This document shows, one piece after another, positions 37,258 to 39,608 of a stretch of 64,000 bases of DNA. The number at the start of each line of letters is the position of its first letter. Positions within the stretch are counted from its first letter, which is position 1. This DNA comes from an uncultured Actinomycetota bacterium (lineage in GTDB: Bacteria > Actinomycetota > UBA4738 > HRBIN12), in the NCBI GenBank assembly GCA_963762745.1, contig CAVXMB010000001.1, positions 35,301 through 99,300 on the forward strand, in the 5' to 3' direction. The notes under the pieces were generated by a model. It was not told the origin of the DNA. It saw only the letters and a program-made list of their open reading frames with translations, and searched no databases. A program made the position numbers and the translations under genes.

Positions 37258-37881
37258 CTAGTCGGTGCCGTGGAGCCGATCGCCGAAATCGCCGAGCCCC
37301 GGGACGATGAACCCCACGTCGTTCAGCTCGCGATCGAGCGCGGCGGCGACGATCGGCACGCCGGGATGATCGTCCTCGATCCTCGCGACGCCTTCCGGGG
37401 CCGCAACGATGCACACGAACGAGATGGAGGTGGGCTTCGCATGCGCCTTCACGTGGGCGATGGCGGCGCTCCCCGATCCGCCGGTCGCGAGCATCGGATC
37501 GAGCACGAGCGCTCGGCGGCCCTCCATCCGCGGCAGCTTCGCGTAGTAGTCGCGCGGCTCGAGTGTCTCCTCGTCGCGTTCCAGGCCGAGGTACCCGACG
37601 ATCGTATCGGGATACAGATCCGTGACGGCATCGAGGAGTCCCAGGCCCGCCCGGAGCACCGGGACGGCGACGAGCGGCTCTGCGATCCGAACGGCCTTCG
37701 TTTCCTCCATCGGGGTCTCGATCGTGAGGCGCTCGCTGAGGAGGTCGCGGGTGGCTTCGATCACGAGCAGCCATCCGAGGCGGCGGGTGAGGCTGCGGAA
37801 CTCGGCGGGATCCGTTCCACGCTCCCGGAGCCGGGACAGGAGATCGAGGGCGAGGGGGTGTTCGAGCACCGTGATCGGCAT
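37258..37881 (-). CDS. upp: uracil phosphoribosyltransferase
   Basis: Start at MPITVLEHPL (207 aa) within track ORF 37258..37926. PRPP motif 'VLDPMLATGGS' and 'GLGDFGDR'. Confidence 0.85.
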   Translation of the reverse strand: MPITVLEHPLALDLLSRLRERGTDPAEFRSLTRRLGWLLVIEATRDLLSERLTIETPMEETKAVRIAEPLVAVPVLRAGLGLLDAVTDLYPDTIVGYLGLERDEETLEPRDYYAKLPRMEGRRALVLDPMLATGGSGSAAIAHVKAHAKPTSISFVCIVAAPEGVARIEDDHPGVPIVAAALDRELNDVGFIVPGLGDFGDRLHGTD

Positions 37882-37919
37882 CGAGCCGCATCCTAGCCCT
37901 GTTGCCGCGGCCGGGCTTG

Positions 37920-37949
37920 TTGACACCGGCGCCGCCCGGCGGTCACGAT
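37920..37949 (+). promoter_or_regulatory. candidate promoter for the aromatic leader / DAHP synthase transcript
   Basis: TTGACA (37920-25), 18-nt spacer, CACGAT (37944-49). This would start transcription only a few nt before ATG 37959. Confidence 0.3.
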
Positions 37950-37958
37950 GGGCGCCTC

Positions 37959-38012
37959 ATGCAGCGCTTCGACGGCGAATGGTTCTTCTACTTCGGGCGT
38001 AGCCCGGCGTAG
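37959..38012 (+). CDS. candidate 17-aa aromatic-rich leader peptide (MQRFDGEWFFYFGRSPA)
   Basis: Hand-translated, too short for the ORF track. ATG 37959, TAG 38010-12. Five consecutive aromatic codons TGG TTC TTC TAC TTC at 37980-94. Sits 92 nt upstream of the DAHP synthase start. Confidence 0.5.
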   Translation: MQRFDGEWFFYFGRSPA

Positions 38013-38036
38013 CACCTGCAGCCGAACGAGCACAGG

Positions 38037-38068
38037 GGCCCCGGGCGGAAGACCCGGGGCCGTTTCGT
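38037..38068 (+). terminator. candidate attenuator terminator
   Basis: GGCCCCGGG (38037-45), 7-nt loop, CCCGGGGCC (38053-61), followed by GTTTCGT. CCCGGGGCCGT is directly repeated at 38053-63 and 38070-80, allowing alternative pairings. Confidence 0.45.
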
Positions 38069-38103
38069 CCCCGGGGCCGTCCCGGCGCCGGAGGAGGTCG
38101 CGG

Positions 38104-39123
38104 ATGGTCGTCGTGATGAAGCAGGACGCGACGGAGACGGACATCGAAGCCGTTTCCGAGCGGGTGCGTGGCGCGGGCGGTGAGGCCTTCGTCTCGCGCG
38201 GCGCCGTGCACACCATCGTCGGCCTCGTCGGCGACACGGACCGCTTCCAGGCGATCGACTGGAAGCAGATGCAGGGCGTCGACCACGTCATCCGGATCGG
38301 GAAGCCCTACAAGATGGTCGCGCGCGACCTCCATCCCGAGACCACGGTCGTCAAGGTGGGGACGACGCCGGTCGGCCGAGGGACGTTCACGCTGATCGCG
38401 GGCCCGTGCGCGGTGGAGAACGCGGAGCAGACGATGGCCGCCGTGGAGGCATCGAGGGCGGCAGGGGCCACGATCGTGCGGGGTGACGTGTACAAACCGA
38501 GGACGTCGCCGTATTCGTTCCAGGGGCTCGGGAAGGAAGGCCTCGAGATCCTGCAGGACGTCAGGCGGCGCACGGGCCTGCCATTCGTGGTCGAGGTCGT
38601 CGATCTGAACCAGGTCGAGCACGTCGCCGAGGTCGCCGATTGCATCCGGATCGGGACGCGCAACGCGCAGAACTTCGAACTGCTCAAGGAAGTGGGGCTG
38701 TCGAAGAAGCCGGTGATGCTGAAACGCGGCCTCGCGATGACGATCGACGAGTGGTTGCAGGCGGCGGAGTACGTCGCGCAGCGCGGGAACTCGGAGATCA
38801 TCCTGTGCGAGCGCGGGATCCGCACGTTCGAACCGGCGACGCGCAACACCCTCGACCTCGCAGGGATGGCGGTCGCGCAGTACGAATCGCACCTTCCCGT
38901 GATCGTCGATCCGTCGCACGCGGTGGGCAAGCGGCATCTGGTGGCGGCGATGGCGAGAGCCGCGGTCGCCGCCGGCGCGGACGGCGTGATGGTGGACGTC
39001 CATCCCCACCCGGAGGAGGCGATGGTGGATGGCGCGCAGGCGCTCCTGCCGCACGAGGTGGTGGAGCTGGGCGAACAGCTGGCGGCGATCGCGGCAGCCG
39101 TCGGGCGACCGATGAACCGCTAG
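38104..39123 (+). CDS. 3-deoxy-7-phosphoheptulonate (DAHP) synthase, type I-beta with N-terminal regulatory domain
   Basis: Start at MVVVMKQDATETDIEAV (RBS GGAGGAGG 6 nt upstream), 339 aa. 'LIAGPCAVEN' and 'KPRTSPYSFQG' motifs. The in-frame upstream extension in track ORF 37948..39123 is rejected. Confidence 0.9.
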   Translation: MVVVMKQDATETDIEAVSERVRGAGGEAFVSRGAVHTIVGLVGDTDRFQAIDWKQMQGVDHVIRIGKPYKMVARDLHPETTVVKVGTTPVGRGTFTLIAGPCAVENAEQTMAAVEASRAAGATIVRGDVYKPRTSPYSFQGLGKEGLEILQDVRRRTGLPFVVEVVDLNQVEHVAEVADCIRIGTRNAQNFELLKEVGLSKKPVMLKRGLAMTIDEWLQAAEYVAQRGNSEIILCERGIRTFEPATRNTLDLAGMAVAQYESHLPVIVDPSHAVGKRHLVAAMARAAVAAGADGVMVDVHPHPEEAMVDGAQALLPHEVVELGEQLAAIAAAVGRPMNR

Positions 39124-39134
39124 GTCATCGTGCG

Positions 39135-39608
39135 CTACGGCGCGAGCCACCACTCGGGCTGACGAGGAGGTTGCAGGGCTTGATCAGCTTTGGCGAGCAG
39201 CAGCGTCAGACGATGTCGCTCGCGATCGCTGAGCGCTTCCTCGAGCTTGAGCTTGAAGTCGTGGGTGTGCTTCCGGAAGAGCCGCAAGCGCCGGAAGCCG
39301 AGCTCTGATGGCCGCACGTAGACGCGTCCGGGTTCGTGAACGAGATCGACCAGGCCGCCGAGATCGAGCTTGTGCACCGTCGTCTGCGCCGCTTGTCGGG
39401 TGAGGCGGAGGATACGTGCGAGCTGGGAGATGTGGATCTCCTTGTTGAGATCTATCGCTTCGAGGGCGCGGTACTGAGCGAAGGTGATCCCGAGGGGCTC
39501 GAGCGACTGGTCCATGAAGACCTCCATCCGATGCTGGAAACGCCGAACGGCGGTGATGACCTCCCATCCGGACGCGAAGCCGTCGTCGGTGCACATGGAG
39601 GCCTTCAT
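39135..39608 (-). CDS. MarR-like winged-helix transcriptional regulator
   Basis: 157 aa. 'LGITFAQYRALEAIDLNKEIHISQLARILRLTRQAAQTTVHKLDLGGLV' has the MarR-type wHTH layout. Confidence 0.7.
   Translation of the reverse strand: MKASMCTDDGFASGWEVITAVRRFQHRMEVFMDQSLEPLGITFAQYRALEAIDLNKEIHISQLARILRLTRQAAQTTVHKLDLGGLVDLVHEPGRVYVRPSELGFRRLRLFRKHTHDFKLKLEEALSDRERHRLTLLLAKADQALQPPRQPEWWLAP

Follow-up and report, generated by a model that had tools for sequence, protein, structure and literature searches.

A conserved aromatic leader ORF and candidate ribosome-mediated attenuator upstream of a type I-beta DAHP synthase gene in uncultured Actinomycetota

The closest described system is aroR-aroF of Corynebacterium glutamicum, in which a leader peptide with a Phe-Tyr-Phe motif precedes a DAHP synthase gene (Mentz 2013, PMC4046766). 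According to the account of Neshat 2014 given in PMC11802643, ribosome stalling under phenylalanine limitation raises read-through at this leader. It is the Corynebacterium precedent to which an initial, sequence-only reading of the present locus had correctly referred (PMC4046766, PMC11802643). In the pheL-pheA and trpL-trpE leaders of Proteobacteria (Rfam Phe_leader and Trp_leader), four segments pair in a 1:2, 2:3 and 3:4 scheme with a terminator as the output; segment 1 contains the regulatory codons or directly follows them, and the stop codon adjoins segment 2. Actinobacterial examples of leader peptides whose translation needs no ribosome-binding site are on record (Morbach 2000, via PMC4046766; bioRxiv 10.1101/834739). 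They include the ilvB leaders of Corynebacterium and Mycobacterium, which, in the accounts of these sources (Morbach 2000 via PMC4046766; PMC13236596), lack a ribosome-binding site and have a Rho-independent terminator downstream. In mycobacteria, leaderless poly-Cys short ORFs sense one amino acid class through ribosome pausing (Canestrari et al., bioRxiv 10.1101/834739). An aro attenuator was not reported in the comparative surveys of Seliverstov 2005 (PMC1262725) and Naville 2010 (PMC2965389).

The element described here occupies the 222-bp spacer between upp and a DAHP synthase (DAHPS) gene in the window, that is, the whole 64-kb stretch of DNA that was analysed. Its features are listed below in window coordinates.

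37881, minus strand: start of upp (TIGR01091 at 7e-67).
37920–37925, plus strand: -35 element TTGACA of the putative leader promoter.
37944–37949, plus strand: -10 element CACGAT (CAnnAT, often preceded by TGn) of the same promoter, ending 9 nt 5' of the leader AUG.
37959–38012, plus strand: leader ORF of 17 codons plus UAG, MQRFDGEWFFYFGRSPA, with frame and stop position kept in relatives.
37980–37994, plus strand: putative sensor block of Trp-Phe-Phe-Tyr-Phe codons, with an extra Phe codon at 37968–37970.
37993–37998, plus strand: region 1 (UCGGGC), 5' arm of the small 1:2 hairpin.
38002–38009, plus strand: region 2 (GCCCGGCG), the last ORF codons, able to pair with region 1 or region 3.
38013–38038, plus strand: P2, inner hairpin of the predicted antiterminator (CACCUG 38013–38018 with CAGGGG 38033–38038, from per-sequence folds).
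38037–38046, plus strand: region 3, 5' arm of the putative terminator (GGCCCCGGG) and also 3' strand of the antiterminator (from the alignment and folds).
38053–38061, plus strand: region 4, 3' arm of the putative terminator (CCCGGGGCC), with nine G:C pairs in the stem.
38062–38068, plus strand: imperfect U-tract GUUUCGU; relatives are T-rich after the stem.
38069–38080, plus strand: region 5, a further CCCCGGGG copy, moderately conserved as UCCCCGGG.
38090–38097, plus strand: Shine-Dalgarno sequence GGAGGAGG of the DAHPS gene, 6 nt 5' of the ATG at 38104 and kept in relatives.
38104–39123, plus strand: type I-beta DAHPS with an N-terminal ferredoxin-like regulatory domain, monocistronic (NF006421, 453 bits; PF00793 and PF18152).

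The coordinates and sequences given by the sequence-only reading all proved correct against the window DNA. They comprised the 222-bp spacer with the minus-strand upp start at 37881 and the DAHPS start at 38104 (identities now backed by TIGR01091 and NF006421); the ORF from ATG 37959 to TAG 38010–38012, encoding MQRFDGEWFFYFGRSPA, with TGG TTC TTC TAC TTC at 37980–37994; the hairpin of GGCCCCGGG (38037–38045) and CCCGGGGCC (38053–38061), located 24 nt past the stop and followed by GTTTCGT; the direct repeat CCCGGGGCCGT at 38053–38063 and 38070–38080, the second copy being that of region 5; the complementarity of GCCCGG (38002–38007) to CCGGGC (38041–38046); and TTGACA (37920–37925) separated by 18 nt from CACGAT (37944–37949).

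Like aroR-aroF, the locus has an actinobacterial short aromatic leader ORF upstream of a DAHPS gene. The enzyme differs: here it is of type I-beta with a ferredoxin-like domain, whereas the product of aroF (cg1129) is an E. coli-like type I-alpha DAHPS. The aromatic run is also longer and mixed (Phe, Tyr and Trp, 4–7 aromatic residues) when compared with aroR as described, and an origin independent of aroR seems likely. With the pheL-pheA and trpL-trpE leaders the element shares the four-segment scheme with a terminator as the predicted output and the placement of the regulatory codons and stop codon, but it has no sequence or covariance-model similarity to them, appears to be of the leaderless type without a Shine-Dalgarno sequence, and has its stop codon embedded in the antiterminator hairpin. 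Three amino acids would be read rather than one, and the target is the entry enzyme of the common pathway rather than a terminal branch. The ilvB leaders, with no ribosome-binding site and with a terminator, as predicted for the present element, differ in their codons, which are for branched-chain amino acids, and in the operon under their control.

A DAHPS protein scan with one genome per species gave 80 loci, approximately 58 of which were from uncultured Actinomycetota metagenome-assembled genomes (MAGs) with a DAHPS 73–97% identical. The 56 related Actinomycetota loci that included the upstream region formed the conservation sample. The ORF, the promoter and both hairpins were all present in 55 of them; a conserved short aromatic ORF before orthologous DAHPS genes was what the sequence-only reading had proposed to look for. 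In locus L055 (2942–3003; DAHPS 73% identical), the promoter was kept as TTGCCA-N18-CACAAT and was followed by a 29-nt UTR with a Shine-Dalgarno sequence and then by the DAHPS ATG. The leader ORF, the antiterminator and the terminator were all absent from it; L055 would be a natural loss variant and should be constitutive.

The promoter layout was conserved as TTGnCA, a spacer of 17–18 nt and CAnnAT, often with an upstream TG. Of 55 distinct upstream sequences, 48 had TTGnCA at -39/-38 from the leader AUG and 45 had CAnnAT at -15 to -10. The latter agrees with a -10 element in the A2/T6 core only, and the leader promoter was not called by a generic consensus scan of the window. The gap between the -10 element and the AUG is too short for any Shine-Dalgarno sequence; from this and from the conserved 9-nt spacing we infer leaderless-type initiation, with a leader 5' UTR of at most a few nucleotides. 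The spacing suggests a transcription start 2–4 nt before the AUG rather than exactly at it. The -35 and -10 regions were also considered as an RNA hairpin or a palindromic operator (TTGCCAG...CTGGCA). This candidate was rejected: by inspection the symmetry came without consistent covariation, and the pattern fits an extended -10 element (TGn). On the other strand, ATCCTA at 37890–37895 (TAGGAT on the minus strand) is kept as TAnnAT in relatives and lies 8 nt ahead of the start codon of upp (37881), and the divergent upp mRNA is probably leaderless or near-leaderless too. The putative upp promoter stands back to back with the leader promoter.

An ATG within the -10 region shares its frame with DAHPS and opens a 391-aa ORF (37948–39123, plus strand) that a gene caller might take for a gene. 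An N-terminal extension of DAHPS from this ATG was rejected, the spacing to the DAHPS ATG not being a multiple of three in relatives; by this comparison the 391-aa ORF is an accident of the window sequence. Downstream, a MarR-family regulator gene (39135–39608, minus strand; PF12802 at 9e-11) is convergent to DAHPS and lies 11 nt past its stop codon, so that DAHPS is monocistronic.

The leader ORF contains six aromatic codons among 17, five of them consecutive. It was the only one, among the 286 ATG-started ORFs of 8–40 aa on both strands of the window, to have an aromatic run of at least three residues or at least four aromatic residues in six, and the probability of at least six aromatic codons in 16 is 5e-5 from base composition. 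In the relatives the ORF stands at the same place in 55 of the 56 loci with an upstream region and measures 16–21 codons, usually 17. Its frame is never interrupted, with no in-frame stop in any sequence. Over 49 distinct ORFs, aromatic codons made up 30% of the codons in frame, as compared with 1.4% and 1.9% in the other two frames and 4.6% expected from composition. The consensus peptide reads M-Q-x-x-F-G-F-W-F-x-Y-F-G-R-x-P-(A/G)-stop. Four to seven aromatic residues were present in 46 of the 49 peptides (on average 3.1 Phe, 1.4 Tyr and 0.65 Trp), alignment positions -11 to -6 were aromatic in 43–88% of cases, with Tyr at -7 in 39 and Phe at -9 in 33 of the 49, and the non-aromatic residues drifted freely among relatives. 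The aromatic-rich leader peptide noticed in the single sequence is matched by a strong, frame-specific enrichment across relatives.

The end of the ORF is constrained differently. Proline is fixed two residues before the stop, and the stop itself (38010–38012; columns 58–60 of alignment A1) is UAG in 47 of 49 distinct sequences and never UGA. Codon choice is strongly biased: CCG is used for Pro in 46 of 49, every variable codon at -3 ends in C, and Gly is GGG in 44 of 49, within region 1, which indicates a constraint at the RNA level. The conserved C-terminal residues thus appear to reflect selection on the RNA and not on the peptide. Within UAG, the G is paired in the antiterminator, and this may explain the choice of UAG; a peptide-level effect of the UAG/Pro end on the release rate is a further possibility.

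The 137-column alignment A1 accommodates three helices: the terminator 3:4, the antiterminator 2:3 and the small 1:2. The 1:2 hairpin (37993–37998 with 38002–38007) is small, with 88% of its cells paired over 54 distinct sequences, a mean dG of -8.8 kcal/mol and little covariation. From region 2 to region 3, a single long antiterminator hairpin was the minimum free energy (MFE) fold in all 56 sequences. Its outer helix, 2:3 (89.8% paired), closes the inner helix P2, the 5' strand is made up of the last ORF codons and the stop codon, and the stop codon sits in an internal loop. Compared with dinucleotide shuffles, the antiterminator segment had a mean z of -3.06, with 80% of the sequences below -2, and P2 alone a z of -1.75. 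P2 forms in 56 of 56 sequences, stacked on 2:3, while its sequence and register vary by lineage. Because the register differs between lineages, an RNAalifold consensus recovered the outer 2:3 helix only, and P2 was judged from per-sequence folds in place of the consensus. The sequence-only reading had proposed that 38002–38007 and 38041–38046 form a competing pairing; covariation supports it, and it corresponds to the closing helix of this longer predicted antiterminator.

The 2:3 pair formed by columns 50 and 100 was GC in 40 sequences, AU in 7 and GU in 1. Among the at least 135 distinct instances listed, the last base of region 3 was U in 21 cases, with A as its region-2 partner in 18 and A as its region-4 partner in 17 of them; where this base was C, region 2 had A in 15 of 112. 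A switch is expected to show such covariation of a single base with two alternative partners; the sequences are phylogenetically related, and the independent events are few. The alternative pairing consists mostly of the palindrome CCCGGG, whose invariance precludes covariation, and the covarying positions are few.

The core of the terminator stem was invariant in 54 distinct sequences. Its flanking pair was A-U in 38 and G-C in 16 and never unpaired, and the apical pair was C-G in 19 and U-A in 8. In the at least 135 distinct instances listed, the flanking pair was A-T in 106, G-C in 23, G-T in 3 and mismatched in 3. The 10 nt past the stem contained on average 47% T against a background of 16–17%; the tract is imperfect and gave no call by a generic terminator scan, and the weakest T-tract was that of the window's own clade (CGTTTCGTCC). 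Within the 64-kb window, CCCCGGG-N3-11-CCCGGGG occurs once, compared with 0.02 expected. The generic terminator scan of the window made no call at the hairpin, and the MFE of the 161-nt stretch as a whole was unremarkable for its composition (z = -0.59). With neither promoter nor terminator called by the scans, significance therefore comes from conservation and not from the single sequence. The proposed terminator hairpin was found in 55 of the 56 relatives, and covariation supports it.

The mean dG was -24.0 kcal/mol for the antiterminator compared with -21.0 kcal/mol for the terminator (56 sequences). Folding with either region 4 or region 2 blocked gave nearly iso-energetic states on average (-26.7 vs. 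-28.5 kcal/mol). The window sequence itself departs from this balance, with -29.1 kcal/mol for the terminator state against -20.7 kcal/mol for the antiterminator; with this difference of about 8 kcal/mol in favour of the terminator, read-through must be under kinetic control. Read-through in the classical trp attenuator is likewise understood as kinetic.

Every part of the element is conserved, the pairings are mutually exclusive, and the link to DAHPS is exclusive among the instances listed. We consider it likely that the element is a ribosome-mediated (leader-peptide) transcription attenuator that adjusts DAHPS expression to the availability of charged Phe-, Tyr- and Trp-tRNA; this was the proposal of the sequence-only reading, and conservation, frame-specific aromatic codons and covariation of both hairpins argue for it. 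From these features we infer the model set out below, including where transcription starts, that the ORF is translated, that the hairpin terminates transcription and that the element responds to amino acids. The transcript would start at the AUG of the 17-codon ORF or a few nucleotides before it, without a Shine-Dalgarno sequence. With an ample supply of aromatic aminoacyl-tRNAs, the ribosome would reach the UAG at 38010–38012 and cover region 2 (38002–38009) and the 5' strand of P2. Region 3 (38037–38046) would then pair with region 4 (38053–38061) to form the 9-bp G:C terminator with its U-rich tail, and transcription would end near 38062–38068, before the DAHPS gene. A ribosome stalled on the W-F-F-Y-F codons (37980–37994) would instead cover region 1 and leave region 2 free. 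Region 2, P2 and region 3 would fold as the long antiterminator before region 4 is made, and the RNA polymerase would read through. In the absence of translation, the small 1:2 hairpin would favour termination. A ribosome protects the usual 12–13 nt of mRNA 3' of the A site. On this basis the stall codons best placed would be 37983–37991; at the last Phe codon (37992–37994) a stalled ribosome would probably mask the beginning of region 2, and at the Trp codon (37980–37982) it would leave region 1 free. The mixed Phe, Tyr and Trp content suits the entry enzyme of the common pathway, for which the ferredoxin-like domain presumably implies a second, allosteric layer of control.

The output could also be translational, the hairpin states gating access to the DAHPS Shine-Dalgarno sequence and the GC hairpin being non-terminating, as in the mycobacterial leaderless poly-Cys short ORFs, which unmask a downstream ribosome-binding site (bioRxiv 10.1101/834739). 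Besides this precedent, the weak U-tract in the window's clade and a pyrimidine-rich stretch past the hairpin that pairs with the Shine-Dalgarno sequence in many MFE folds speak for such an arrangement. Here, access to the Shine-Dalgarno sequence does not track the switch: its unpaired probability was 0.42 with the antiterminator enforced and 0.41 with the terminator enforced, and the ON state had the higher value in 28 of the 55 sequences (Wilcoxon p = 0.82). Moreover, the terminator-like hairpin and the T-richness past the stem are conserved, and the segment after the terminator is only weakly non-random in structure (z = -0.80). On these grounds a translational output is unlikely. In this segment, region 5 is predicted to pair with region 4 in the antiterminated full-length RNA, or with downstream sequence. 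Both Shine-Dalgarno sequestration and a chain of 4:5 and 5:Shine-Dalgarno pairings were rejected, access being equal in the ON and OFF states over 55 sequences, and a conserved structured element past the terminator was rejected on the same weak z. As a separate observation, a 15-nt unit that holds the Shine-Dalgarno sequence, GAGGTCATGGCCGAG, is present in 3.5 tandem copies in locus L009 (2946–2997), in the stretch that separates the terminator from the DAHPS start; L003 and L007 have two copies of this unit.

Attenuation might depend on Rho or reflect general polarity: once the ribosome has left at the UAG, untranslated C-rich RNA would be exposed to Rho, and the hairpins would only modulate the outcome. 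The leader RNA is indeed C-rich, and with actinobacterial polymerases intrinsic terminators with poor U-tracts are inefficient. Yet the conserved stem, the covarying flanking pair and the T-rich tail are what an intrinsic terminator needs and Rho does not, and a conserved antiterminator sharing an arm with the terminator has no role in a purely Rho-based model, which makes such a mechanism quite improbable.

Strong conservation of nucleotide blocks and hairpins would fit a ligand-, protein- or tRNA-binding RNA (riboswitch or T-box-like) in which the ORF is incidental. A search of Rfam in 37700–38300 gave no match even at E <= 10, including Phe_leader, Trp_leader, His_leader, Leu_leader, Thr_leader and T-box, and the sole match at gathering score in the window was a tRNA. 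Frame, ORF length, stop position and frame-specific aromatic codons are kept while the non-aromatic residues vary, and no conserved single-stranded pocket exists apart from the palindromic arms, so a binding RNA of this kind is very improbable. The preferred reading remains the leader-peptide attenuator.

The breadth of the family was examined with a metagenome scan whose pattern spanned the ORF end, region 3 and region 4 and which returned at least 120 stretches. Among the 122 matches listed, 86 were followed by a DAHPS gene, some of them 58–70% identical to the query, a handful with an aromatic leader ran off the contig, and approximately 29 were without an aromatic ORF and look like chance. 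A DAHPS of type I-beta follows every aromatic-leader instance with enough downstream DNA (86 cases among the matches listed), and none of the metagenome matches listed had an aromatic leader before any other gene. All sources pooled, at least 135 distinct instances were obtained. That the mini-ORF, being conserved, encodes a functional micropeptide, e.g., a RiPP-like aromatic peptide, instead of a sensor is the least credible explanation, given that the residues drift except in aromatic character, that RNA constraints explain the invariant C-terminal residues, that the neighbours (upp upstream, DAHPS and the MarR-family gene downstream) include no modification or export genes, and that the element is always tied to DAHPS among the instances listed.

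In other phyla, unrelated aromatic-rich mini-ORFs, each followed by a canonical hairpin and T-run terminator, were observed before type I-beta DAHPS genes. They are MIRYGQSGWFYGFYFTKPGLLALS in Verrucomicrobiota (L076, 2834–2908), MTFAPAYYCYFTYRFFDWHAAGCAEVM in Coriobacteriales (L067, 2792–2875) and, as a weaker case, MVMFFLGIA in Desulforamulus putei (L080, about 2876–2905). Their occurrence suggests convergent leader-peptide control of type I-beta DAHPS across phyla. Two refinements of the attenuator can be envisaged together, a combination that we regard as speculative and rather doubtful. The invariant Gly-x-x-Pro-(Ala/Gly)-UAG end may slow release, holding the ribosome on the antiterminator to guarantee termination, and the CCCCGGG copy at 38069–38080 may lock region 4 in the read-through RNA as a second layer of the switch. 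If both were true, then with the Verrucomicrobiota, Coriobacteriales and Desulforamulus mini-ORFs, aromatic leader control of pathway entry would be a widespread unannotated theme with lineage-specific refinements.

What appears to be new is a sequence family without an Rfam model, and what is known is the mechanism of leader-peptide attenuation; a textbook mechanism would be extended, not changed. Neither Rfam nor gene annotation includes the family, which has more than 130 members. The annotation of MAGs would benefit from a covariance model, which would also prevent misreading of the mini-ORF and terminator, as exemplified by the 391-aa in-frame ORF from 37948. A single enzyme would combine an allosteric ferredoxin-like domain with a single RNA switch reading all three aromatic amino acids. 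The element would show how the entry of carbon into the shikimate pathway is controlled in a large group of uncultured Actinomycetota from soil and sediment.
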